From Escherichia phage AV109: a DNA stretch of 64,000 bases. Positions 5,389 to 47,823 of the stretch are shown piece after piece; position 1 is the first letter of the stretch, and the number at the start of each line of letters is the position of its first letter. The stretch lies in the sequence record OR352939.1; one strand, 5' to 3'. The position numbers and the translations under genes were made by a program. The notes beneath the pieces were generated by a model. It had not been told where the DNA came from. It was given only the letters and a program-made list of their open reading frames with translations, and ran no database searches.

Positions 5389-6474
<1,086 letters not shown>

Positions 6475-6475
<1 letters not shown>

Positions 6476-6774
6476 TATTTTATTCCTAAGAAAGTTTCAA
6501 GAATACGAATGTTATGCTCGCGCCGGTCTTTATTAATTTCAGCAACATTTTTATTAATTGACGTACTTCTAACGTTTGAAGAAATAAATTTAATCATATG
6601 ACTTTTGAGTTGTTGCAAATCCAACCCTTTTTCTTTAGCAGCTTTACGAAGAGCTTTACCTGCTTCATCTAGTGCCTTTGCTGCATCTTTGTCATAATCG
6701 ACAAGTGACATTCCACGGCAGATATCAATATACTCATCAGACCGTTTGATGTAATTCTCTAGTAATGTTTTCAT
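6475..6774 (-). CDS. hypothetical protein (99 aa)
   Basis: ORF with early promoter upstream. Confidence 0.45.
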
Positions 6775-6802
6775 TTAGATTTCCTCAATTATCCATAGGA
6801 GC

Positions 6803-6832
6803 ATTATACTCTGCTCCCGAGAGTTTGTAAAC
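6803..6832 (-). promoter_or_regulatory. T4-type early promoter (GTTTAC / TATAAT); near-duplicate of promoter at 38292-38321
   Basis: minus-strand GTTTACAAACTCTCGGGAGCAGAGTATAATGCTC. Confidence 0.55.
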
Positions 6833-7056
6833 TATTTTACTAAAGATTCAATATACTCATGAAGAGCTTTAGTAGCTACTGCCCACTTATTCTGATATTC
6901 ATTTTTCAGATTAGCACGAGACTGAACTAACAAGCGGTCATTAGTCGGAGGCAAAGATTCTAATCGTTGAATCTGGCGCCCATAAATCATAGCCGCCATT
7001 TCAGATTCATAGATAAGCCCTTTAATGTATTCATGCTGTTCTTTAGTCATTGGCAT
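6832..7056 (-). CDS. hypothetical protein (74 aa)
   Basis: ORF. Confidence 0.4.
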   Translation of the reverse strand: MPMTKEQHEYIKGLIYESEMAAMIYGRQIQRLESLPPTNDRLLVQSRANLKNEYQNKWAVATKALHEYIESLVK

Positions 7057-7337
7057 TTTTCCTCTTTTAAACCACTACGATAATAACATAACATAGTCTT
7101 CTGGTCATGTACATATCTTTTTATGTCGTTTAACCAGATACGAAATTCTTGAGAGTCTTCAAATGGCATTCCAACCCATGGATTACCATCAATAACCTTT
7201 ACTTGCCATTTCTGGTTATATTCGGAAATAGGCGTAGGCCATGAAGGATGTAAAGTTTCTTTAGGGCTTAAGGGCACATCCTGGGCACATCCAGCCAAAA
7301 TGCCAATAGATAATACAACTGCGGTTAATTTAATCAT
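7047..7337 (-). CDS. outer-membrane lipoprotein, probable o-spanin (T4 PseT.2-like)
   Basis: signal peptide with lipobox ILAGC; directly downstream of a TM plus coiled-coil ORF; matches T4 spanin position between alc and pseT. Confidence 0.6.
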   Translation of the reverse strand: MIKLTAVVLSIGILAGCAQDVPLSPKETLHPSWPTPISEYNQKWQVKVIDGNPWVGMPFEDSQEFRIWLNDIKRYVHDQKTMLCYYRSGLKEEKCQ

Positions 7338-7690
7338 TCTGAGAGCTTCCTGAGGTCTTCTGCAAAGGAATCGAAGGACCTGTTGATTTGTTTTTCGACC
7401 AATCCTGGCTTACTTGCCACCACGTTCTTCTTCTTCGAATCCTGACGGAGCTTTTCATTTTCGGCCTTAAGTTGGTCAACTAAAACACGGTTCTTATAAG
7501 TCATTTCTTCGATTGACTGATATTGAACCTTGAAGTCGTCTAATACTTTAGCATTGTTTTTAGCGGTCTCTTTGACAGAAGCTAATTCAGTATTCAGCGA
7601 ATCGACTTTATGGTTCAGAAATGCTATTGTTACAGTAGCAACAACTGCAAAAGCTGCCACTACAATATATGATGCATTTACTTTAAGCAT
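7334..7690 (-). CDS. N-terminal TM plus coiled-coil protein, probable i-spanin (T4 PseT.3-like)
   Basis: hydrophobic segment IVVAAFAVVATVTIAFL followed by charged helical region; overlaps start of lipoprotein ORF. Confidence 0.6.
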   Translation of the reverse strand: MLKVNASYIVVAAFAVVATVTIAFLNHKVDSLNTELASVKETAKNNAKVLDDFKVQYQSIEEMTYKNRVLVDQLKAENEKLRQDSKKKNVVASKPGLVEKQINRSFDSFAEDLRKLSE

Positions 7691-8178
7691 GTTTGAATAA
7701 TCTCAATGATTTCGTCTCGGGATAATCCATTGATAAGAACTGTTTTAGGCCCGTCAGTTTGGATTTTGTATGATTCAAACAATACACACAACTCTTCTGC
7801 TGTATGATATGGGCTTGAGATTCCGAGACGGTTAAATTTGTCGGTAAGAGGGTCGCAAATAATATAGAATTTGATACCTGCGATATGTACGTTTGGTTGA
7901 CTAATATTAATGAACACATTAGCGTCATATTTAGTCAAATTGTTTTGAAGAAATTCTACCATAGAATTAACTGCTTCTGGCATCGCTTCGCGTTTCTCTT
8001 CAGCGTATCGGGTTGAATACTCTTTTTGTTTTACTTTCTTTTTAAGATTTTTGGCCAGTGTAACACGTAGGTCAGTAAGATAACCAACTGGACGTCCTTT
8101 CTTAAAGACCCGGATTCCGTCAGTTGTGTCTCCAAAAGCGTTTACGACCATATCGTTAGTAATCAATTGCATATTCAT
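7678..8178 (-). CDS. alc: Alc-like protein (inhibitor of transcription from cytosine-containing DNA), 166 aa
   Basis: size and position between rnlA and pseT region as in T4; start placed at ATG 8178 (MNMQLI) preceded by AGGAGA SD, not the track start 8220 which lies in the promoter. Confidence 0.55.
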   Translation of the reverse strand: MNMQLITNDMVVNAFGDTTDGIRVFKKGRPVGYLTDLRVTLAKNLKKKVKQKEYSTRYAEEKREAMPEAVNSMVEFLQNNLTKYDANVFINISQPNVHIAGIKFYIICDPLTDKFNRLGISSPYHTAEELCVLFESYKIQTDGPKTVLINGLSRDEIIEIIQTCLK

Positions 8179-8207
8179 AATTTTCTCCTCGTGTTGTTGA
8201 TAAACCC

Positions 8208-8237
8208 ATAGTATCACCATCCTTGGTGTTTGTAAAC
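8208..8237 (-). promoter_or_regulatory. T4-type early promoter (GTTTAC / TACTAT)
   Basis: minus-strand GTTTACAAACACCAAGGATGGTGATACTAT upstream of alc. Confidence 0.5.
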
Positions 8238-8239
8238 CG

Positions 8240-9373
<1,134 letters not shown>

Positions 9374-9392
9374 TCAGTTAGTTTTTTTTTAA

Positions 9393-9422
9393 ATTGTACC
9401 ACAATCCTTGTGGTATGTAAAC
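9393..9422 (-). promoter_or_regulatory. T4-type early promoter (GTTTAC / TACAAT)
   Basis: minus-strand GTTTAC at 9422-9417 and TACAAT at 9398-9393 upstream of rnlA. Confidence 0.45.
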
Positions 9423-9832
9423 TACTTTTTCTTATGTTGGATATTCCAAGGCGGGTTGAACTTTTTGATAAAAAGTGGTTCTTCAAGGTCCATTGTTGCG
9501 ATGGTCATTGAACCAAGTTCGTTGGTGACTGAAAGGTCAAAACATTGGCGGGCCCAGAATTCAACCTTTTTGCCTTGCATTAAGGCATCCAAAATCATAA
9601 GTGATTTTCTTGAATCTGAAGTCTGGTCTTTTCGATTTATGGCTGTTCGATAATAGTTAATGCGTTTCTTTAAATTCTTGGTTTTACCAATATACACAAG
9701 TTCGTCATCTATAGCAATAGCATATATAACATTTTTCTTATTAGGGGCATCAATGGTTTTAATTGTTGCATCTTCTAATAGCTCCAATTCTATATATTTA
9801 ATAAAGGAATATTCGGCGGCAATATCTTTCAT
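9422..9832 (-). CDS. denA: endonuclease II (GIY-YIG family, host DNA degradation)
   Basis: 136 aa as in T4; GIY-YIG-like VYIGKT motif; position between nrdB and rnlA. Confidence 0.8.
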   Translation of the reverse strand: MKDIAAEYSFIKYIELELLEDATIKTIDAPNKKNVIYAIAIDDELVYIGKTKNLKKRINYYRTAINRKDQTSDSRKSLMILDALMQGKKVEFWARQCFDLSVTNELGSMTIATMDLEEPLFIKKFNPPWNIQHKKK

Positions 9833-9840
9833 AATAAAGT

Positions 9841-9854
9841 GGGACCGAAGTCCC
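9841..9854 (-). other. UUCG-tetraloop hairpin (GGGAC-UUCG-GUCCC) between nrdB stop and denA start
   Basis: 5-bp GC stem with C(UUCG)G loop, 8 nt upstream of denA ATG; no clean U-tract. Confidence 0.45.
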
Positions 9855-9858
9855 GTCC

Positions 9859-10361
9859 TTAGAAATATTTTTTGTATGAATTGATTACATTTTGGTCTAC
9901 ATCATTATCAATTTGTGCGACAAGATAAGAACTGATTTCAACTTCCTGAGGAGCTGCTTGAACTAAATCAGAGTTCAGATATTCACGAATCCAAGGATAA
10001 GGATGTTTGGTCGGAGCATCAGTAATTGGACACGGCAAACCACACTGTTTCATACGAGACACAGTCAAGTAATCAACAAAAGCACACATACTCTGTGTAT
10101 TGATACCTGGACATGTACCGTCTTTAAAGAGGTGTGCAGCCCATTCCTTCTCTTGACTATTTACTTCCATAAAAATGTCAACTGCTTCTTGTTCACATTC
10201 TTTAGCAATTTGAACCCACTCATCACCATCAGTACCGGATTGAAGTTGACGGATAATGTACTGAGTACCCTTGAGATGGAGTTGTTCGTCACGAGCAATG
10301 AACTTCATAATCTTTGCATTGCCTTCCATAATTTCCATATTCTTATGGAAATTAAATGTAC
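9859..10361 (-). CDS. nrdB: ribonucleotide reductase small subunit NrdB, exon 2
   Basis: encodes ..CTFNFHKNMEIMEGNAKIMKFIARDEQLH.. C-terminal half; joins exon 1 in frame to give a 392-aa product. Confidence 0.75.
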
Positions 10362-10953
10362 CGTTATGTTCGATTGAGCTCGCTAATTCTCAACCCGTTC
10401 TCTTATGAACTGCTGCATATTACTATGCAGACCAGACTATATCACAATCCCGGAGGGATTCTCCCCATTTCGAGTCGCTTGACCCTACGTCCGAAGACTA
10501 GTCGTTGAACCTTGCTTTGCAATTGTCGCCGTGCCATCGTTTATATGTCGATGGTGATAAATCTTTCTTTTCACAATATGGACAATTCAATTGAATTCTA
10601 TTTGGATTTAATTTGCATCTGTCATTATGTTTTAGATAAAACCCAGGACCTTTACCAATGTGACCGCAGAAATCACATGTGATTTCTTTTTGTGCAGGAT
10701 GGGTTCCGTTCTTAACCATTTCTAATGTTTTTGCTGATGTTCTTCCATCAGAATCTTTAGGTATAGGCCCGTTAGCATCCATCCAAATTTTTCTATAATT
10801 CAATTGTGCATCCTCTTAAAAGTATAATCATATTTATTTTATAATATACTAATTAAAGGTGCAAGCAAAACCTTGGCTGCTAGTTTTCCTATAAAGGACT
10901 TTCCAGCAATTAAAGGAGTTTTCGATAAACGTTACCGTTTAAAGGCGCATTTT
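10362..10953 (-). ncRNA. group I self-splicing intron in nrdB (approx. boundaries)
   Basis: exon 1 frame hits a stop immediately after conserved YVSFA; exon 2 resumes conserved NrdB sequence ~590 nt downstream; proposed splice sites follow exon-U / intron-G rule and restore frame; T4 nrdB has a similar intron. Confidence 0.65.
10498..10803 (-). CDS. intron-encoded endonuclease I-TevIII-like ORF (101 aa, probably truncated)
   Basis: ORF inside nrdB intron with Cys/His zinc-finger-like motifs (CDFCGH, CPYCEK); short compared with full-length I-TevIII of RB3. Confidence 0.55.
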   Translation of the reverse strand: MNYRKIWMDANGPIPKDSDGRTSAKTLEMVKNGTHPAQKEITCDFCGHIGKGPGFYLKHNDRCKLNPNRIQLNCPYCEKKDLSPSTYKRWHGDNCKARFND

Positions 10954-11629
10954 ACGCAAAAGATACATAAAAACGAATAGCTTCCAATGCATTGATGACA
11001 TGCAAACAAAGATAAAGAGATTTCATTAGGTCTCGTTTAGCTTCGGTCTCTTGTTTAATAGCTCGGTTTAAACGAAGGTCGGCATCAGGAGATTCTTTAG
11101 CTTGTTCTACAAATTCTTTAGCATTTTCCCAATTACGAGTCTTGACTAGAACATCATCATAATATTTACCTATTGATTCAGCTCGTTTCATGATTGCTTC
11201 GTCTAATACAATCTCATCAAATACTTTGGATGGATCGGTATAAAGATTTCGCATAATATGAGTATACGAACGAGAGTGAATAGTTTCACTGAATGTCCAT
11301 GTTGCAACCCACGTATCTAATGAAGGGTCGGAAAGCAGTGCCATAAGTACCGCAGATGGGGCCCTGCCTTGGATAGAATCTAATAATGATTGATACTTAA
11401 GGTTGTTTGTAAAGATGTCCTGTTGGAACTGAGGAAGCTTATTGAACTGGGCCGAATCCAGCATCAGGTTTACTTCTTCTGGTCGCCAGAAAAACGACAA
11501 TTGCTTTTCAATAAGTTCTTCAAAAACTTTATGTCGCTGAATATCATAACGTGCGAGGCCAAGACCAGAACCAAAGAACATTGGTTCATTCAAAACATCG
11601 ACTTGTTGTGTGTTAAAAACTGTACTCAT
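10954..11629 (-). CDS. nrdB: ribonucleotide reductase small subunit NrdB, exon 1
   Basis: N-terminal 225 aa ending ..EAIRFYVSFA, matching class Ia R2. Confidence 0.8.
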
Positions 11630-11684
11630 TATATTTTCTCACTTAGTTATTAACTCATCCATGAGTAAATTATAATCAAAAGTC

Positions 11685-13949
11685 TTAAAGCTTACAAGCA
11701 GAACAATCTTCAGCTTTAGGTGTTTCTAATTCATAGTCATCTGTACCTGACCCATCACGAGTGTTATGATAGTAGAGGTTTTTTCCGCCAAAGTACCAGA
11801 AGTAAAGCAGATCGTCAAGCATTACTGACATTGGCACTTTACCTTTCTCAAATACTGCAGGGTCATAGTAAGTATTAGCAGAAGCAGATTGGCACACCCA
11901 TTTCAACATGATAGCAACTTGGGTCAAATAAGGTTTATTACCTTTCTTAGCAAGTTTCCACGCGTAGTCGTAAAGACTCATGTTATGTTCTATATTAGGA
12001 ACAACCTGTCGGAAGTTGCCTTCTTTAGATTCTTTAATACTTACAGGTCCACGAGGTGGTTCTATACCATTTGTGCTATTTGAGACTTGACTGCTTGACT
12101 CACAAGGCATGAGTGCAGACAACGTTGAGTTACGAATTCCATGTTCTTTGAGTTCAGCTCGAAGTTCTTCCCAGTCACAGACATAGTTCGGGGCTGCGAT
12201 TTGGTCAATCTTTTTATTGTACCAGTCGATAGGTAATTCGCCTCTAGACCATTTAGTGTCTGAATAATACTCACAAGGTCCTTTTTCTTTGGCGAGTTTG
12301 ATTGATGCTTTGATAAGGCCATATTGCAATCTCTCGAACAATTCATGGGTCAAATCGTTAGCGTCTTCATATGAAGCAAAGTTAGAAGCTAACCATGCAG
12401 CATAGTTCGTCACACCAACACCGAGATTTCGACGCTTTTTAGCTTTTAAAGCTTCTGGAACCGGATAATCTTGATAGTCTAACAGGTTATCAAGTGCACG
12501 TACTTGTACTTCAGCAAGTTCATTAATTTTATCTTGGTCTTGCCAATCAAATTTATCTAATACAAAAGCAGATAATGTGCATAAACCAATTTCAGCATCA
12601 GGACCATTCACATCATTAGTTGGAATAGCGATTTCACAACATAAGTTACTCTGACGAATTGGAGCTTTTTCACGAATAAACGGAGTGTAGTTATTCGTGT
12701 TATCAACAAACTGTGGATAAATTCGAGCAGTGCCAGAACGTTCAGTCATGAACAATTCAAAGAGTTCTAGTGCTTTGATTCTTTTCTTTCTGATTGTTGG
12801 GTCTTTTTCAGCTTTCTCATAAAGCTCACGGAATTTATCTTGATCTTCAAAGAACGAGTAGTATAGTTCACCTGACATTTCGTGAGGGCTAAATAAAGTA
12901 ATATAATCATTTTTACCAAGGCGTTCCATCATAAGGTCATTAATCTGAATTCCGTAGTCCATATGTCGAATACGGTTTTCATCCACGCCTTTGTTATTTT
13001 TCAGAACTAATAGGTTCTCTACTTCTAAGTGCCACATCGGATAATACGCTGTAGCAGCACCACCACGAATACCACCTTGAGAACAAGATTTTACTGCAGT
13101 TTGGAAATGTTTCCAGAATGGAATAACACCCGTATGTCGGACTTCACCCATACCGATCTTAGAACCTTCTGCACGAAGCATACCAACGTTGATACCGATA
13201 CCAGCTCGTTTAGAAATATATTCAATAATTGATGCTGAAGTTTTGTTAATAGATTTTAACGAATCACCGGCTTCAATAACTACACAACTAGAGAACTGGC
13301 GAGTCGGAGTGCGAGCACCTGCCATAATTGGAGTAGGCAATGAAACTTGATGAGTAGAAACGGCATCATAAAAACGAATAATATGTTTCAAACGGTCATG
13401 AGTTTCGTCTTGATGTAAGGCCATACCAATAGCCATGATAGCAAACTGTGGAGTTTCATAAATCTTCCCAGTTGTTTTATCTTTAACCAAGTATTTTTCT
13501 TTAAGCTGCATAGCACCAGCATAAGTCAGGTCAAAGTCTCGTTCATGTTTAATCTGTGAATCGAGATAAATGATTTCTTCTGCTGAATATTTAGACAACA
13601 ACTCAGGGTCATATTTGCCTTCATTAACACAGTAAGAAATATGGTCGATAAAAGCAGGCGGTTCAAACTGCCCATATACATCTTTACGAAGTGCAAACAT
13701 TAGCCCTTTGGCGGCGACATACTGATAATCGGGTTCTTCGACAGAAATCAAGTTAGCTGCAACTTTAATACAAATCTTCTGAATATCTTTGGTGCTCATC
13801 CCATCAACCAGATGAGTCTTAATTTCTTCATACAATTCGTATGGGTCGATTTGTGTTCCTTCACACTGCCAAGTTAATACTTGAATAATTTTCTGTGCAT
13901 CAAAATTTTGGGATACACCTGAATTTTTCACTACTTTAAAATTATACAT
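11685..13949 (-). CDS. nrdA: ribonucleotide reductase large subunit NrdA
   Basis: 754 aa, near-identical to remembered T4 NrdA, ends ..DCSACKL. Confidence 0.95.
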   Translation of the reverse strand: MYNFKVVKNSGVSQNFDAQKIIQVLTWQCEGTQIDPYELYEEIKTHLVDGMSTKDIQKICIKVAANLISVEEPDYQYVAAKGLMFALRKDVYGQFEPPAFIDHISYCVNEGKYDPELLSKYSAEEIIYLDSQIKHERDFDLTYAGAMQLKEKYLVKDKTTGKIYETPQFAIMAIGMALHQDETHDRLKHIIRFYDAVSTHQVSLPTPIMAGARTPTRQFSSCVVIEAGDSLKSINKTSASIIEYISKRAGIGINVGMLRAEGSKIGMGEVRHTGVIPFWKHFQTAVKSCSQGGIRGGAATAYYPMWHLEVENLLVLKNNKGVDENRIRHMDYGIQINDLMMERLGKNDYITLFSPHEMSGELYYSFFEDQDKFRELYEKAEKDPTIRKKRIKALELFELFMTERSGTARIYPQFVDNTNNYTPFIREKAPIRQSNLCCEIAIPTNDVNGPDAEIGLCTLSAFVLDKFDWQDQDKINELAEVQVRALDNLLDYQDYPVPEALKAKKRRNLGVGVTNYAAWLASNFASYEDANDLTHELFERLQYGLIKASIKLAKEKGPCEYYSDTKWSRGELPIDWYNKKIDQIAAPNYVCDWEELRAELKEHGIRNSTLSALMPCESSSQVSNSTNGIEPPRGPVSIKESKEGNFRQVVPNIEHNMSLYDYAWKLAKKGNKPYLTQVAIMLKWVCQSASANTYYDPAVFEKGKVPMSVMLDDLLYFWYFGGKNLYYHNTRDGSGTDDYELETPKAEDCSACKL

Positions 13950-40864: not shown

Positions 40865-43078
40865 TTATTTGGCTGCTTCCACAGCCTTCATGAATTTAAC
40901 GATTTGAGCGACCTGTTCTTTTGAAAGAGTACCACGTCGTCCCATGTATTCTGACACAATATGATAATTGGTTTCGAATTCAATAACCATTTTATCATCA
41001 TTATCGTAAGCATTATCTTTAAGCTTATCGAAAATTTTAGCACACAATTCTAACTTCTTATTCAGGTCTGTATTAGTAGCACCTGCGAATCGATTCCATC
41101 CCCAACGATTATTTACTGTTGAGAGTTTTGCAAAATCTTTACTGATTTCTTTGTTTTTAGAGCTAAAATACTTACTAAGGAAGTTAAGCTCTTCATTACG
41201 AGTAATATGATTCAAATAAGGTTGAGCTCTACGACTTGGTGATACATACTCATCATAATCCGCTTTATCAATTAGCGTAATATAGTCATTAATTGATTTT
41301 TCGAACAAGCATTCTACTTCACCAAGTTTACGAACTTTCTTAGCAATCTGTGGACGAACTACAGTGAACTCTTTAATACCCGACAAATCAGCAATACGGG
41401 TCAAGAAATTGGAGTCATAGTTCAACCAACCTTTATCTGCGTCAAGACATTCAGCATTAGAACGATTACGAACTATAGCATAACCTTGGATTTCATCTGC
41501 TTCACTTGCCGGAATAAAGAGATCTTCTGATACCCAAACATCGTTTTCATTCTTAAAGAATCGATGAGCACTTGGCGATTTAGGACGAGGCTCATTAGTC
41601 CGTTTCTTGACTTCAATCCATGGCTTAACGATTTGTAAAAGCTCTGAAGTCTTGTACATGTTAATGTTGTCGCCATCAAAGATAACTTTAAGGCGTTCCA
41701 GAAGTTTCATTGCATCTTCGTCTGTAGGGTCAACGAATAGTATGCTTTTACCAAAACCGCGCGGAACTTTACCAGTTAATTTAACATCGTCTTTAGACAT
41801 TTCAATTGAATTAAGAGCTCGCATTAATGGAACGCGTCCCTTAACGTCGTCAATAACAATTTCAACATTTTTAATGTTAATGCCAATCAGACTGTTAATT
41901 GAAATAGTCGCCGATGAGCTACCACTTTCACGAATACGACGAAGACGAGGGGATTCAACTATATCGTATACTACGCCAAGATTACACCACTCAGGCCCCA
42001 TTTTAAAACGTTTGTACAACTCAGAATAAGTTAGTTGTTCTTTAGAGTATTTCAGTGATTCAATATTAGACCCGGCCTTTTCCATGTATTTACGAGCGGT
42101 ATAGCCAAGAGAATCAATTTCACGGAACACATGACGTGGGTATTTACAATCAATCCATTTCTTAGAATCTTCAGCGAACAATTTAGCATCGATTTCTGCA
42201 ACGCGTTTATGGATATTTGCTACTGTACGTTTATCAAATGACAATGCTTCACGAGACGGGGCTACATCTAGTTCACCCATAGGGAATTTAATATAAGCTG
42301 TAGTGCATCGCGTCATCATCCATGTTTGTTCTTTAATAACACTTCCGATTGGATATACAATACCACCATAAACAGCCATGATATTACCACGTTCACCCCA
42401 TGGAGCTTCCTTGGCCAAATATACATCGTCAAATTCTGGGAAGTATTTAATATCTTTAACACCACGAACTTCTGCAATATCACCTAGAGGACGCATAACA
42501 TAAGCAATTTCGGATGCGAACTTTTCAAAATCTTCTGGGTTAACAGGCACAACTACTTCAACGCCGGTCCGGTCATCAGGACCCATCTTATCTACGAAGG
42601 TTGGCTTAATCTGTGGACCCGTGTCATCTTGGTAGATTACGTAACCACGAACTTCACCGTTGTGATAAGACGTAAGGTTAAACGTATCGGTATATGCTAA
42701 TGGAGCTTTAGAGCCGAGTCCGAATCCACCAATGAAATCGTTACTCGATGTTTTAGTTGAAGCAAAATATGAGTTATAGATTCCTGGCTCTTTGTCATTA
42801 CCTCGAATGGTGAAATCACTCATACCCGGTCCAAAATCACGAACTACAAAACGTGGGTCTAAACGACCTGGAGCCTGAACAATAAACTTATCAGTGCAAC
42901 CATTAAGAATTTGCCCATCAATACAGTTTGTGATTAATTCACGTACACAAGCCAATTCTTTGTTTGTATAAAGGTCATTAGACAAAATCTTATAAACTTT
43001 GCTATTGCCTTGAATAGTAAATGCTGTGCTCTTACCGCCTGAACCAATAATCGTTTCTTTAGCCGTTTCGATAATCAT
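40865..43078 (-). CDS. rIIA: rIIA protein (GHKL-ATPase-like N-terminal domain)
   Basis: 737 aa; position upstream of rIIB; N-terminal ATPase-like motifs. Confidence 0.9.
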   Translation of the reverse strand: MIIETAKETIIGSGGKSTAFTIQGNSKVYKILSNDLYTNKELACVRELITNCIDGQILNGCTDKFIVQAPGRLDPRFVVRDFGPGMSDFTIRGNDKEPGIYNSYFASTKTSSNDFIGGFGLGSKAPLAYTDTFNLTSYHNGEVRGYVIYQDDTGPQIKPTFVDKMGPDDRTGVEVVVPVNPEDFEKFASEIAYVMRPLGDIAEVRGVKDIKYFPEFDDVYLAKEAPWGERGNIMAVYGGIVYPIGSVIKEQTWMMTRCTTAYIKFPMGELDVAPSREALSFDKRTVANIHKRVAEIDAKLFAEDSKKWIDCKYPRHVFREIDSLGYTARKYMEKAGSNIESLKYSKEQLTYSELYKRFKMGPEWCNLGVVYDIVESPRLRRIRESGSSSATISINSLIGINIKNVEIVIDDVKGRVPLMRALNSIEMSKDDVKLTGKVPRGFGKSILFVDPTDEDAMKLLERLKVIFDGDNINMYKTSELLQIVKPWIEVKKRTNEPRPKSPSAHRFFKNENDVWVSEDLFIPASEADEIQGYAIVRNRSNAECLDADKGWLNYDSNFLTRIADLSGIKEFTVVRPQIAKKVRKLGEVECLFEKSINDYITLIDKADYDEYVSPSRRAQPYLNHITRNEELNFLSKYFSSKNKEISKDFAKLSTVNNRWGWNRFAGATNTDLNKKLELCAKIFDKLKDNAYDNDDKMVIEFETNYHIVSEYMGRRGTLSKEQVAQIVKFMKAVEAAK

Positions 43079-43090
43079 GTTTTTCTCTCA

Positions 43091-43321
43091 TCACAAGTTA
43101 CGTTTAAAAATTTCTGCCACTTCGAGAAGTTCTTCTTTAGTAGCTGTGTCGGTTTGTATTTTATATCGAATTTCCTTAAAGCGTTCTTTAAAGGCTTCAG
43201 CTGATTCGATATCAAAAAATCTTTGGATAAGCCGGAATTCCCGGAGCACTGCTTTATCAAAAAGTTCCAAGTCCACGTTATATGTTCTCATAATATTCTC
43301 TTCAGTAGATTCCTGAGGCAC
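43091..43321 (-). CDS. hypothetical protein (76 aa), rIIA.1-like position
   Basis: ORF immediately upstream of rIIA. Confidence 0.4.
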   Translation of the reverse strand: MPQESTEENIMRTYNVDLELFDKAVLREFRLIQRFFDIESAEAFKERFKEIRYKIQTDTATKEELLEVAEIFKRNL

Positions 43322-43383
43322 TATTACTAAAGACCATATAATCTATCATCTTATGTGTAATAGTGCCTCAGGCGATTCAGGAT

Positions 43384-44484
43384 TTACGCTGTGAAGATTT
43401 TATCCCACATCGCAACAACTGCATCTCGATTATACTTCTTCCATACTGCTTCAGCACGTTTAACTCGAGCTTCGTATGTGTCAGTGAATTCTAATACAGC
43501 TTTTGTGTAAAGCGCAACTACTTCTTTCTTAGGAGTAGAGGAATCAATTTCTACACGCACAGTATCTGGGTCGTATTCAAATGTCGCATGAGGATAATCC
43601 TTAAAAACTAACTGGATTACAGGGACACCTTTAGAGATGGCTTCAATAGAACTATTCTCTACCGTACCTGTGTCAGGACACGTATTAATAAGTGCTTTAG
43701 CTGTTTTAAGACGTTCCATGATTTCACTATGTGGAGCATCAATAATAACAGGATACTTAGCCGGTGGTGCCCATTTACTAGGACAGTATCCTGCACCATT
43801 TTCGCCTAGTGCTTTAATCGCTTCAAGAGCAACATCAGTGCGACGCATTTTAGTGTCATAACGTTGGGCACTAATAATCAAATCAGTTGCTGGGAGAACT
43901 TCTGGCTTTTCGGTCAAACAAATAACCGGGTAGTCATCATGTTCAAATAATGGATTTTCACGCCAGTAATCATAATCAATGCTATCAGTAAGAGCTGAAG
44001 TCATATGGCAATATTTACGTTCAAATTCACGGAATGCTTTAGTAGGAGCATAGCTCTTACCACCGTATTTGTGGGTAAGAATAGTTTGTTTCCAAATTTC
44101 TACAATACCGCGAGATACAGGCTCAAATGGAGTTGCCATAAAATTTCTATGAACACTGGATAAACCGGCATCTTTAATTGCGTTAACAGTTAGTTTAGTC
44201 GGTTCCATAGTAACAACAAAATCGTATTCATGGATGCCGGCTAGTTCAACAATCTTACGAGCCATAGTATAACTCATACCTAGACTGAATTTAGTCAGAT
44301 GACCAACAGGATGATGATTAACTTTCCAGTCACCAAACGTGTCATTATCAAAGCCGATATAATCAATATCAGCACCGATGGACACAAGATATTTCAACAC
44401 ATTTAAATGTACTGCTTCAAGGCCACCTTGTACACGGTCAGGATTAAATGGGACTGCACGAGATGGGATAAACATAACTTTCAT
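43384..44484 (-). CDS. putative GT-B fold glycosyltransferase (366 aa)
   Basis: C-terminal block GTVENSSIEAISKGVPVI resembles the GT-B/GT4 E-x7-E nucleotide-sugar binding motif; located between gene 39 and rIIA. Confidence 0.45.
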   Translation of the reverse strand: MKVMFIPSRAVPFNPDRVQGGLEAVHLNVLKYLVSIGADIDYIGFDNDTFGDWKVNHHPVGHLTKFSLGMSYTMARKIVELAGIHEYDFVVTMEPTKLTVNAIKDAGLSSVHRNFMATPFEPVSRGIVEIWKQTILTHKYGGKSYAPTKAFREFERKYCHMTSALTDSIDYDYWRENPLFEHDDYPVICLTEKPEVLPATDLIISAQRYDTKMRRTDVALEAIKALGENGAGYCPSKWAPPAKYPVIIDAPHSEIMERLKTAKALINTCPDTGTVENSSIEAISKGVPVIQLVFKDYPHATFEYDPDTVRVEIDSSTPKKEVVALYTKAVLEFTDTYEARVKRAEAVWKKYNRDAVVAMWDKIFTA

Positions 44485-44510
44485 AATTAAGCCTTATTAA
44501 AATTAAAATG

Positions 44511-44528
44511 AAGCTCCCGAAGGAGCTT
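44511..44528 (-). terminator. hairpin AAGCUCC-UUCG-GGAGCUU overlapping HNH gene stop
   Basis: 7-bp stem, UUCG loop, followed by CAUUUUAAUUUU. Confidence 0.5.
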
Positions 44529-45339
44529 AGGACATCCAACACATTTTATAACCTTTGCAGGTTCTGTTAGGATTATTTAATGCTTTCAATATATTAGAAG
44601 ACCCTATATCTAAATACTCCCTTAATTCATAAAGATAGTTAAAATCAATAGTTTCACCTGTTTTTACACTTGTGATTCTTATAGGCCTTCTTTCATATTT
44701 AGATTTATACAACTCTCTAGTCTTAGCTTTAGTTTCTTCTGACCTAGGAGTGTATGGTTTAAATCCTTTTGTTTTAAATGTTTCCATTCTTGATTTAGTT
44801 ATTTTATCCTGGTGTTCTTTTGTTTTTACAGGTGCTTTTCGCCCATTCTCCCAAGATAACTTGTTGGCCTGTATTATTTTATCTATTGCTTCTTGCGTAT
44901 GAGTTTTACCATAAAATGGATTTAATTCGCCTATACGTTGTGAAGCAATATGTGACATTAATTCTCTTGTTGCTTTAGTATGTTTTTTACCTTTAAATGG
45001 ATTGCCATTTTTAGCAATCCATTCTTTCATAAATCTAGAGTGCTCTTTAGAGAATTCTTGTTTAAGCCAATCATAATCTCTAGAATTTCTAGCTCCCATG
45101 TAAAAAGCTCTAATAGCCATAAGCATAGAACGGTTCTTATGAATTTTATAAAGCAATAAATGGGCGATAAAATGCTCTCTAGGGGTCATTTTAACTAGAT
45201 TTGATTTAGCATTACTCCCACCCATAGATTTAGGCAAAATATGGTGAGTTTCAGTATAATTAGGAATAGTGCTGCGGTTTTTAGCCGCAGCGATAAGTTT
45301 ATCATAAATTTTACGATAATTCATTATCCTAGCATCCAA
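44527..45339 (-). CDS. HNH homing endonuclease (Mob-like) with NUMOD repeats
   Basis: HNH block THHILPKSMGGSNAKSNLVKMT..EHFIAH; NUMOD-like repeats; freestanding immediately downstream of gene 39. Confidence 0.75.
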   Translation of the reverse strand: MDARIMNYRKIYDKLIAAAKNRSTIPNYTETHHILPKSMGGSNAKSNLVKMTPREHFIAHLLLYKIHKNRSMLMAIRAFYMGARNSRDYDWLKQEFSKEHSRFMKEWIAKNGNPFKGKKHTKATRELMSHIASQRIGELNPFYGKTHTQEAIDKIIQANKLSWENGRKAPVKTKEHQDKITKSRMETFKTKGFKPYTPRSEETKAKTRELYKSKYERRPIRITSVKTGETIDFNYLYELREYLDIGSSNILKALNNPNRTCKGYKMCWMS

Positions 45340-47162
45340 TCTTTACGGAGTTCAGGGTCGTTACCCATGAGCATTTCAAATAGTTCTTTCCAATTTTCAG
45401 GAAGTTTAACTACGTCGTACACAGGGTTTTGAATCATTTCTTTATATTCATCCCGCTGAAGTGAGCCCAATCCCTTGATGTATCGAATACTATGCTTAGG
45501 CAGTGTATCTTTAACTTCTTCATACTCAGCTACAGTATAAAACCATTTTTGAGTTTTGCCAATTTGTGCAATAATTACAGGCGTTTTAACAAAGCGAATA
45601 CGTCCTTGTTCAAACAATTCAGGCCAATTACTAAAGAAAGCAAGCAAAGCCGGATAAATACTTCCAAGGCCGTCATGATCGGCATCGGTCATAATTGCAA
45701 TATTACGGTAGTTCGTATTCTCTGCCTTTTCACCAAGAATAAGACCCGTGATAGCACAGATATCAAAGAGCTCTTTGTTCTTCATCATATCGGCATATGA
45801 CATACCCCAGCTATTCATCACCTTACCACGTAATGGGAATCCGCCGTGTAGTTCACGGTCACGAACATCAATGAGATAACCAATTGCCGAATCACCTTCT
45901 GTTAAAAACAATGTCGTATCTGCATCTTTACCACATTGGTTAGCTTTAATATGCTTATGAACCTTAGCTTTAGTTGCCTTTTTAGCTGCTTTAGTTTCTG
46001 CAGCCTTTTCTGCTGCCAATTTACGAGCTAATGCGGCTTCAATTATAGGCATTAAAACTGCTTCAGAATTCAAAATATTTTTTGCCAATTTTTTTGTATC
46101 TAATTTAATATGCGTCCGAATTTCGCCATAAGGACTTGTTAAACGCTCTTTGGTTTGGGAATCAAAACGAAGGTTCTTCATTCCACGAACGAACATTAAG
46201 AGAGTGAGACATTCCTTGATTCGCGCTTTAGTCACGTCGATTTTATATTTGCGTTTAATAGCCGGAATTAATTCTTCGCTAATGTCGTCCATCACACATT
46301 CAATGTGATGACCACCGTTTTTGGTATGGATGTTATTCACATAAGTTAAATGACGGAAGCCATCTGGTGACCGTCCAATGGCAATAGAGCATCCGTCTTG
46401 TTCTTGAATGATGGTCTCTTCATCAAATTGTTTAGCAAACTTCTTAAAGTTACCTTGAATCTTTTTGCCATTAAATTTAAATTCAATACCAGGATAAACG
46501 ACCGCCAATGTTTGGAGCCGGTCTATAGTAATATCTTGGTATATTTTTTCAAATTGATTCATTTCAAAATGTGAGAAATCAGGAATAAACTCGACCTTAG
46601 TACCGTTGTTTTTAGACGGCTTAGATTTCCAAGAAATATTATCAGCGTTATTAGAACAATTAACGGTCAATTCATTTTTACCATCTGAAGTAGTGCCAAC
46701 AAAAGAGACAGAAAAAATATTTGTTAATGAAGAACCGACACCGTTTTGTCCACCCGTAACACGTTCTTTGTCGTCACCAAAGTTGCCACCGGCTTTTGTA
46801 CGTGTCCACGCCGCAACTGGTCCTGGAATTTCTTCTCCTTCAGGAGTAATAACTGTTTCTTGAGGAATACCTCGACCATTATCTTCAACAGTCACTTTAT
46901 TAGAATTTAAATCAATACTAACGGAAATTTTATTAGCATATTTGAAATTGGTTCGAATAGCTTCGTCTACTGAGTTGTCAATAATTTCATCAATTAATTT
47001 GAGAACACCTGCAACATATTTAACCTTTTTAAATTCACCGAATAGGAAACGTTCTTGTTCTTCATTGGCAACACTTCCAATATACATGCCAGGACGCTTC
47101 AAACAATGCTCTTTATCAGATAGCATTTCAATTTTATTATCAATCATTAGATTTTCTCTCAA
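45324..47162 (-). CDS. 39: DNA topoisomerase II large subunit gp39 (GyrB-like ATPase), unsplit
   Basis: 612 aa single ORF covering the regions that are split into genes 39 and 60 in T4; GHKL ATPase and TOPRIM motifs. Confidence 0.92.
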   Translation of the reverse strand: MRENLMIDNKIEMLSDKEHCLKRPGMYIGSVANEEQERFLFGEFKKVKYVAGVLKLIDEIIDNSVDEAIRTNFKYANKISVSIDLNSNKVTVEDNGRGIPQETVITPEGEEIPGPVAAWTRTKAGGNFGDDKERVTGGQNGVGSSLTNIFSVSFVGTTSDGKNELTVNCSNNADNISWKSKPSKNNGTKVEFIPDFSHFEMNQFEKIYQDITIDRLQTLAVVYPGIEFKFNGKKIQGNFKKFAKQFDEETIIQEQDGCSIAIGRSPDGFRHLTYVNNIHTKNGGHHIECVMDDISEELIPAIKRKYKIDVTKARIKECLTLLMFVRGMKNLRFDSQTKERLTSPYGEIRTHIKLDTKKLAKNILNSEAVLMPIIEAALARKLAAEKAAETKAAKKATKAKVHKHIKANQCGKDADTTLFLTEGDSAIGYLIDVRDRELHGGFPLRGKVMNSWGMSYADMMKNKELFDICAITGLILGEKAENTNYRNIAIMTDADHDGLGSIYPALLAFFSNWPELFEQGRIRFVKTPVIIAQIGKTQKWFYTVAEYEEVKDTLPKHSIRYIKGLGSLQRDEYKEMIQNPVYDVVKLPENWKELFEMLMGNDPELRKDWMLG

Positions 47163-47823
47163 ATTGCATGACTATATTTTTGTATGAACCTTCCGGAAAT
47201 CCACGTTTAATGCTTTCTTTAGCAAATTTCCCAACCTTTGGTTTATCCAATTCTAACCATAATTTATATAAAGCAGATTCATATTCCCATACAGGACTTT
47301 TACGATTTTTAAGCCCACACTTTATAAGCGCTTCCTTTGTATGTTTCTTATTATAAAATGGATTGTTTTTGCCACTCATTGCTTTAGAATGTTCCGGGCG
47401 CTTAATTCCATACATCGGATTAAGATCGCCTTTCTTGATAACGGATTGTAGTTCAATAGTTTCTTCAGAGTGATTGTGTCCATAAAATGGATTTAACTCT
47501 TTTGAAACATCCATACCAAAGCACCCATCGACTGTGGCATAAGACATGTTGAAAAATTTTTCAGATTTAACCACATTATGCAATTTCTGGTAATACAACT
47601 CACAAAACGTCGCTTCTTCCCGTGTATCAAATTCGCCAATAATACATGAATCAAATAAATGAGGATTATCTTTTATCTCTTTATCATAAATTTGTTTATA
47701 TTTTTTCGACTTTACCGTACCATGATAGTGATTGTTTGTATGTTTATCAAGATAAGTAGACCCTATATAAAACGGTGGCAACTTATCGCCTGTGTATATT
47801 GTTAAGTATGTTATGTATTTCAT
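47140..47823 (-). CDS. GIY-YIG homing endonuclease (Seg-like) with NUMOD repeats
   Basis: N-terminal YLTIYTG..FYIGST motif; repeated NPFYG.xHSEET / NPMYG / NPFYNKKHT modules; no obvious SD. Confidence 0.7.
   Translation of the reverse strand: MKYITYLTIYTGDKLPPFYIGSTYLDKHTNNHYHGTVKSKKYKQIYDKEIKDNPHLFDSCIIGEFDTREEATFCELYYQKLHNVVKSEKFFNMSYATVDGCFGMDVSKELNPFYGHNHSEETIELQSVIKKGDLNPMYGIKRPEHSKAMSGKNNPFYNKKHTKEALIKCGLKNRKSPVWEYESALYKLWLELDKPKVGKFAKESIKRGFPEGSYKNIVMQFERKSND

Follow-up and report, generated by a model that had tools for sequence, protein, structure and literature searches.

The DNA of phage RB69 was first reported to contain arabinosyl-5-hydroxymethylcytosine, with the product of the open reading frame (ORF) ORF003c proposed as the transferase (PMC6024577; Thomas et al., 2018). 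This chemistry has since been revised to β-D-Araf-(1-3)-α-D-Araf-5-hydroxy-2′-deoxycytidine, in which Araf is arabinofuranose (PMC13326640). In the same work, the thymidylate-synthase homologue gp48 was experimentally shown to make 5-hydroxy-deoxycytidine monophosphate (5-hydroxy-dCMP), gp46:47 was proposed as the first arabinosyltransferase, and gp3, the ORF003c product, was labelled 'beta-arabinosyltransferase 2' (PMC13326640). Mosigviruses encode two putative DNA arabinosyltransferases (PMC13390438), the DNA of the genus carries 5-hydroxydeoxycytidine (5-hydroxy-dC) with one or two D-arabinofuranoses, and doubly arabinosylated hydroxycytosine was found in Bas46 and Bas47 (PMC12923530). Here, the corresponding gene is described in a 64,000 nt stretch of Escherichia phage AV109 (sequence record OR352939.1), referred to throughout as the window. 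The ORF at 43384-44484 on the minus strand is, by sequence comparison, the Mosigvirus orthologue of RB69 gp3 (ORF003c). Its product is very probably a soluble glycosyltransferase of the GT-B fold that acts on phage DNA, most likely transferring a second arabinofuranose onto the first, and it is referred to here as putative DNA arabinofuranosyltransferase 2.

The 366 amino acid ORF recognized in the initial annotation is present in the ORF listing, with an ATG start, 366 codons and a stop codon, on the minus strand. Over 2.4 kb around it, the sequence matches that of Escherichia phages AV114, AV115, and AV116 (Mosigvirus) at 100 % identity and that of about 160 other Mosigvirus records at 93-97 %; the final 4 kb of the window is colinear with AV115 at 99.90 % identity. 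The protein aligns without gaps to RB69 gp3 (NP_861693), also of 366 amino acids, at 96 % identity, and is likewise 96 % identical to Bas47_0105, which is annotated 'putative hmC-arabinosyltransferase' (hmC, 5-hydroxymethylcytosine). Residues 1-366 out of 366 match PHROG 8302, described as 'unknown function' (E 4.8e-218). Two structures in the PDB match at E 1e-241 and approximately 96 % identity, 9IQZ ('phage HY126 glycosyltransferase', apo) and 9IR0 ('phage HY126 glycosyltransferase with UDP', uridine diphosphate), both released on 2025-07-16; a full-text literature search for these two PDB codes returned no relevant paper. The RB69, HY126, and Bas47 proteins are therefore alike to the AV109 protein in length, in identity, in the position of the gene between rIIA.1 and gene 39, in structure, as described below, and in belonging to the same pathway of 5-hydroxy-dC and UDP-arabinose. 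Compared to RB69 gp3, there are 16 amino acid changes, and in the window an HNH endonuclease gene has been inserted upstream. The literature already contains the gene, its family, the crystal structure, and the proposed role; the window is typical of this group and presents no new biology.

The family to which the transferase belongs is tiny. No Pfam family is matched at E up to 1, neither Glycos_transf_1 (PF00534) and Glyco_trans_4, which are associated with GT4 enzymes, nor any other, and NCBIfam gives no matches at E up to 10. When the profile of the family was compared with PDB sequences, only 9IQZ was recovered. A word-indexed search of 5.8 billion proteins found five clusters, and HMMER, run exhaustively against 1.84 billion representatives, gave 11 at E ≤1e-3. 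Among sequenced phages, tblastn located the gp3 family in 211 records, approximately 155 of which are Mosigvirus (at least 90 % identity, one copy each) and approximately 56 of which are Acinetobacter phages (about 42 % identity, two copies each). No members were found by tblastn between the Mosigvirus type, at 90 % or more, and those of the Acinetobacter phages, at less than 60 %. One record, that of Shigella phage JK45 (MK962757.1; 601-2204 of the retrieved stretch), contains the full transferase gene followed by a partial second copy encoding the C-terminal 136 amino acids, which reflects either a partial duplication in tandem or an error of assembly. JK45 is classed as Tequatrovirus, yet bears the Mosigvirus-type transferase gene.

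The initial annotation read the ORF as a glycosyltransferase and proposed that this be checked against predicted structure; the check agrees with that reading. The transferase is predicted to have a GT-B fold, from an AlphaFold2 model (pLDDT, predicted local distance difference test, 91.7; pTM, predicted template modelling score, 0.87). This was made from a 13-sequence alignment, to which five distant relatives from HMMER had been added; a 6-sequence alignment gave a pLDDT of 62 and was not used. In a Foldseek comparison with the PDB, 9IR0 and 9IQZ rank first (template modelling score, TM, 0.96-0.97), followed by GT-B enzymes of the GT4 type (TM 0.56-0.66, 10-14 % identity), including the tetrahydrobiopterin glucosyltransferase BGluT, BshA, PimA, WaaG, and MshA. 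The model therefore combines a GT-B fold and a UDP-binding C-terminal domain, and solved GT4 structures are the closest to it beyond the HY126 enzyme. In the viral structure library BFVD, the closest matches other than family members are transferases of Rhizobium phage RL2RES and Sinorhizobium phage phiM9 (TM 0.67-0.76, 13-17 % identity). A gene cluster for glycosylated 5-hydroxycytosine has been described in Rhizobium phage RL38JI and related Pootjesviridae (PMC13326640).

The remainder of the pathway was located in AV115, outside the window, since the two phages are 99.9 % identical up to the window end. The AV115 cluster begins approximately 1.5 kb past this end and lies between uvsX and the DNA polymerase gene (5532-12081 of the retrieved AV115 stretch). 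It encodes a 182 amino acid protein, a 299 amino acid transferase, a ThyA homologue, a U32-like protein, a 128 amino acid protein, a 561 amino acid bifunctional NTP-transferase/kinase (NTP, nucleoside triphosphate), and a SIS-domain arabinose-5-phosphate isomerase. A 5-hydroxy-dCMP synthase, genes for UDP-arabinose, and a first transferase are thus all represented. The ThyA homologue is 99 % identical to RB69 gp48, but only 25 % identical to T4 gp42, and has RSQN where T4 has RSND. Because this enzyme resembles RB69 gp48 and not T4 gp42, the phage makes 5-hydroxycytosine DNA and not hmC DNA. The earlier suggestion of a DNA-modifying pathway of non-T4 type is upheld. Almost all of the pathway genes in the AV115 record, the transferase included, are annotated 'hypothetical protein', and other records call the transferase 'DNA alpha-glucosyltransferase'. 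GenBank annotation has not kept up with this family, and 'DNA alpha-glucosyltransferase' is wrong.

Three lines of evidence, all of which bear on relatives, support the addition of the second sugar as the role of the transferase. The first is the activity of homologues in the Acinetobacter phage DLP3 (Lazarusvirus). Both DLP3 gp77 (43 % identical) and gp76 (42 % identical) are full-length homologues that are encoded inside the DLP3 cluster, beside a nucleotide kinase and the first transferase, and they share with the AV109 protein the invariant residues R208, R214, N267, T268, T274, E281, G286, Q291, E303, and R340. Jointly, and with UDP-Araf as the donor, gp76 and gp77 attach a third Araf to RB69 DNA in vitro (PMC13326640). 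Since the DLP3 homologues act on arabinosylated DNA, the family is likely to extend sugars that are already on the DNA. The second is the distribution of the first transferase. The 299 amino acid type is present in 348 records, compared to 211 for the gp3 family, and it ranges through Dhakavirus and phages of Klebsiella, Enterobacter, Edwardsiella, Yersinia, Pectobacterium, Serratia, Proteus, and Providencia, whereas gp3-family genes occur in Mosigvirus and Acinetobacter phages only, for which two or three sugars have been reported. In phages of Serratia sp. ATCC 39006, the first transferase is present and tblastn finds no gp3 homologue; LC53, a phage of this strain, is reported to be mono-arabinosylated. 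The third is that copy number tracks sugar number, with one copy in the di-arabinosylating Mosigviruses and two in the tri-arabinosylating DLP3. The two systems differ in that DLP3 has two tandem paralogues within its cluster and three sugars on its DNA, while in Mosigvirus, with one or two sugars, the gene is single and about 20 kb from the cluster.

In the proposed pathway, the thymidylate-synthase homologue would convert dCMP to 5-hydroxy-dCMP, which would then be built into DNA, and the first transferase, the homologue of RB69 gp46:47, would place α-D-arabinofuranose on the 5-hydroxyl. For the transferase studied here, the most likely donor site is the C-terminal Rossmann domain, in which R208, R214, E281, and G286 are invariant and which would bind UDP-arabinofuranose; the enzyme would then transfer the second arabinofuranose onto the first, giving the β-D-Araf-(1-3)-α-D-Araf-5-O-dC found in RB69 DNA. 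The bulkier sugar may help the DNA to evade host nucleases and other defences. The orthology, the fold, and the presence of the remaining pathway in the same kind of genome are shown here. Others have shown that UDP is bound in the HY126 crystal, have determined how the DNA of RB69, Bas46, and Bas47 is modified, and have demonstrated that the Acinetobacter paralogues work on DNA bearing arabinose. From these we infer the addition of the second rather than the first sugar, and the linkage that is made.

Some observations weigh against this assignment. GT4 enzymes, the nearest structural relatives, are retaining, while the proposed product has a β linkage atop an α one; either of the two phage transferases may be the retaining one and the other the inverting one. 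The distribution argument leans on the chemistry of the few phages that have been analysed. No direct assay of RB69 gp3 or of its Mosigvirus orthologues was found in the literature covered, outside of which are He et al. (2026) and Mahler et al. (2025), and the role of gp3 is described as 'proposed' (PMC13326640). An 'Aat' deletion of Bas46, which may be of this gene, is mentioned in PMC13216743. Single DLP3 transferases are inactive in vitro, gp76 and gp77 being needed together (PMC13326640), and by analogy a lone gp3 might need a partner. In addition, ORF003c was originally proposed as the sole, and hence the first, arabinosyltransferase (PMC6024577).

That last proposal, in which the ORF encodes the base-proximal enzyme that places arabinose on the 5-hydroxyl of cytosine (the hydroxymethyl, in the 2018 view), is the alternative that survives best, although it is considered unlikely. 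It has in its favour that ORF003c was the named candidate (PMC6024577) and that no direct assay separating the two steps was found in the literature covered. However, it is the other transferase, the 299 amino acid homologue of gp46:47, that adjoins the 5-hydroxy-dCMP synthase in every arabinosylating group. The difference in record numbers given above, the phages of Serratia sp. ATCC 39006, which have the 299 amino acid type without the gp3 family and include the mono-arabinosylated LC53, and the DLP3 paralogues, which work on DNA that is already arabinosylated, also argue against it. The addition of the second arabinofuranose therefore remains the favoured role for the transferase.

Variation within the gene raises a separate question as to its product in AV109 and its closest relatives. 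A divergent central segment of 351 nt (43840-44190, minus strand; codons approximately 99-215), which takes in the last part of the N-terminal domain as well as the linker, has at most 88 % DNA identity to every phage outside the AV114-118 group by megablast, while the flanks are approximately 99 % identical. By codon-by-codon comparison, 15 out of the 16 amino acid differences from RB69 are in this segment (residues 101-191). Many synonymous as well as non-synonymous differences from RB69 and Bas47 are present there, and the flanks are nearly identical. Positive selection was considered as the chief reason for this clustering and rejected, because synonymous changes are concentrated in the same segment. 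The pattern suggests recombination with an unsampled divergent allele. The 15 changes fall in the presumed acceptor-binding N-terminal domain, and there is a slight chance that the AV114-118 segment alters the product, whether in the linkage, in the di-arabinosylated fraction, or through a third sugar. If so, the DNA decoration of the AV114-118 lineage would be distinct from that of RB69, Bas46, and Bas47.

The residues that are invariant in the family (R208, R214, N267, T268, T274, E281, A282, G286, Q291, E303, P306, and R340) are all in the C-terminal domain. It is the C-terminal half of GT-B enzymes that binds the nucleotide-sugar. Within it, the block GTVENSSIEAISKGVPVI (residues 273-290, G273-I290; 43615-43668, minus strand) forms a loop, helix, and strand of the C-terminal Rossmann domain. 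In the AlphaFold2 model, the surrounding secondary structure is a strand (264-267), a loop, a helix (277-284), and a G-x-P-V-I strand (289-294). Family alignments show T274, E281, A282, and G286 in this block to be invariant and G273, E276, S279, P288, and V289 to be near-invariant. The block had been taken for the E-x7-E nucleotide-sugar binding motif. GT4 enzymes carry EX7E in a strand-loop-helix-strand arrangement of this kind, and from this arrangement GTVENSSIEAISKGVPVI is the homologous region, which is the part of the claim that stands. The literal motif is not there. The local residues are T272-G273-T274-V275-E276-N277-S278-S279-I280-E281, so that the glutamates of the block, E276 and E281, are spaced as E-x4-E, and position -8 from E281, where the first Glu of a canonical E-x7-E would be, is the near-invariant G273. 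Only the second Glu of EX7E is kept, E281, followed by A-x3-G-x-P-V. The transferase therefore differs from the CAZy GT4 enzymes (BshA, 3MBO/6N1X; PimA, 2GEJ; WaaG, 2IV7; MshA, 3C4Q; tetrahydrobiopterin glucosyltransferase, 5ZER/9V0L) in having Gly273 in place of the first EX7E Glu, in its 9-15 % identity to them, and in its acceptor, a sugar on DNA.

Several of the top structural neighbours (WaaG, WaaB, PimA, and WbnH) are transferases of lipopolysaccharide (LPS) or the envelope, which is in keeping with an enzyme that modifies the host or virion surface (LPS core, O-antigen, or receptor) instead of DNA; a surface or receptor-modifying enzyme had been the other suggestion of the initial annotation. 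These matches are at 9-15 % identity, however, and reflect the generic GT4 fold. No transmembrane-like or hydrophobic segment was found in the transferase, its gene is set among early DNA-metabolism genes, and the Acinetobacter homologues are embedded in a DNA-modification cluster and are active on DNA in vitro. A surface-modifying role is thus unsupported and highly unlikely.

The T4 α-glucosyltransferase (a-gt; 1Y6F/1XV5) and β-glucosyltransferase (b-gt) and the gentiobiosyl-forming transferase of T2 and T6 are, like the transferase here, phage GT-B enzymes that use a UDP-sugar and modify 5-substituted cytosine in duplex DNA after replication, and the pI of the transferase, 6.15, is near that of T4 AGT. 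The likeness to the T2/T6 second-glucose enzyme goes further, since the transferase, too, is believed to extend a first sugar with a second. A relationship to the T4 enzymes was looked for, as had been suggested, and no sequence homology to a-gt or b-gt was found by hhalign of the family profile (probability <1 %); only the GT-B fold is common. That the ORF is a first or second glucose transferase of the T2/T6 kind for hmC DNA has next to no likelihood, given this result, the gp48-type ThyA homologue, the gap in tblastn identities between at least 90 % and less than 60 %, and the DNA of RB69, NP, Bas46, and Bas47, which bears arabinose on 5-hydroxycytosine and no glucose on hmC (PMC13326640, PMC13390438, PMC12923530). 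Of the second-glucose transferase on hmC put forward at first, the second-sugar role is retained, matching what is proposed for RB69 gp3 (PMC13326640, PMC13390438), but the base is not hmC and the sugar is D-arabinofuranose and not glucose.

The transferase gene is co-oriented with all of its neighbours. In minus-strand order, these are a GIY-YIG/NUMOD3 seg-like gene (47140-47823), gene 39 for the topoisomerase II large subunit (45324-47147; identified from the ORF listing, alignment with RB69 and Bas47, and annotated tables), a free-standing HNH/NUMOD3 homing-endonuclease gene (44527-45323; Pfam NUMOD3 with a weak HNH match, PHROG 655), the transferase gene (43384-44484), rIIA.1 (43091-43291), and rIIA (40865-43078), followed by rIIB. 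An AAGG Shine-Dalgarno-like element, read from the sequence at 44492-44495 on the minus strand, is 8-11 nt 5′ of the transferase ATG and is conserved in RB69 and Bas47. The position of the transferase between rIIA.1 and the topoisomerase large-subunit gene is the same in RB69 and Bas47, with the HNH gene additionally intervening here. In T4, rIIA.1 is directly followed by gene 60, with a short spacer only. The ORF had been placed where T4 has only rIIA.1, and it is indeed an extra gene relative to T4. It does not replace rIIA.1, however, which is identified in the window by Pfam T4_RIIA1 (E 6e-30) and by the 201 nt gene annotated at the matching position in RB69 and Bas47; the ORF is therefore an additional gene between rIIA.1 and the topoisomerase gene.

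Gene 39 is here a single unsplit gene of approximately 607 amino acids, as is known for RB69-like phages; in T4, the topoisomerase large subunit is split into 39 and 60 around mobA. The seg-like gene that overlaps its start is a second free-standing homing-endonuclease gene, with a GIY-YIG-like N-terminus and NUMOD3 repeats (PHROG 10820 and 314), and has no counterpart in RB69 and Bas47. With the HNH gene at its other end, gene 39 lies between two endonuclease genes that are both low in G+C (0.32-0.33).

When the junctions are aligned with the corresponding region of RB69 and Bas47, the HNH gene proves to have been inserted exactly, as approximately 800 bp, within the final codons of gene 39. 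In both of these phages, gene 39 ends ...AAAGAATGGATGTCCTAA, with a hairpin directly after. In the window, the end of gene 39 has been rebuilt as ...AAAGATTGGATGCTAGGATAA (45324-45345), encoding KDWMLG and a stop rather than KEWMS and a stop, and the HNH ORF starts immediately after, to terminate on the old TGGATGTCCTAA, which is the former gene 39 stop. Silent substitutions are clustered in gene 39 beside the insertion. The HNH gene is present in 27 records at 98.6 % identity or more. In the Tequatrovirus fPS-90, an HNH gene that is at least 99 % identical is found at the same gene 39 end, the order being gene 39, HNH, terminator, and rIIA.1, without the transferase. The HNH gene thus has the features of a homing endonuclease, with HNH/NUMOD3 domains, presence or absence at a fixed target, and spread across Mosigvirus and Tequatrovirus.

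The transferase gene lies next to the HNH gene and has a hairpin on either side, which would fit the earlier suggestion of a mobile cassette, taken here as both genes bounded by hairpins. This can hardly be upheld. In RB69, Bas47, and most Mosigviruses, the transferase is present and the HNH gene is not; in fPS-90, the reverse holds. The G+C content of the HNH gene (0.317) differs from that of the window (0.375) and from that of the transferase gene (0.394), which is near that of its neighbours. A mobile transferase cassette was therefore rejected, since the insertion junction is exact and the two genes are distributed independently of each other. The HNH gene alone is mobile, and the transferase gene is resident.

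Both the HNH gene and the flanking hairpin noted earlier do exist, the latter at 44511-44528 on the minus strand, where the terminator scan and RNA folding give AAGCUCC-UUCG-GGAGCUU, a 7 bp stem with a UUCG loop, followed by CAUUUUAAUU. In its 66 nt context, this hairpin folds no better than shuffled sequences (z -0.46). It is identical in RB69 and Bas47, neither of which has the HNH gene, and a terminator is annotated at the same place in fPS-90. Because it is present in phages that lack the HNH gene, it is the native 3′ hairpin of gene 39 and not a cassette border. From this hairpin to the transferase ATG is 26 nt, a gap that fits no promoter-like site, and transcription reading through from gene 39 is therefore the probable source of transferase expression, so that the two genes would be co-transcribed. 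On the other side, the spacer between the transferase gene and rIIA.1 contains a long hairpin (43315-43369, minus strand) with perfect 13 bp arms at 43315-43327 and 43357-43369 (GAGGCACTATTAC ... GTAATAGTGCCTC) that are 29 nt apart. On the coding strand, the RNA fold is -28.2 kcal/mol (z -4.79), with 0 out of 200 shuffles as good, and the right arm has three differences in RB69 and two in Bas47. As there is no U-run after it, this is not a classic terminator.

Arabinosylated 5-hydroxycytosine is a hypermodification of phage DNA whose nature was clarified only recently. The modification changes how sensitive phages are to restriction enzymes, CRISPR-Cas, DNA glycosylases, and type IV systems, and it therefore matters in the choice and engineering of therapeutic phages. 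The practical value of the present comparison is in better annotation, as most GenBank records for this gene, including that of AV115, state 'hypothetical protein'. The transferase is the step that is thought to set whether one or two sugars are carried on the DNA of these phages.

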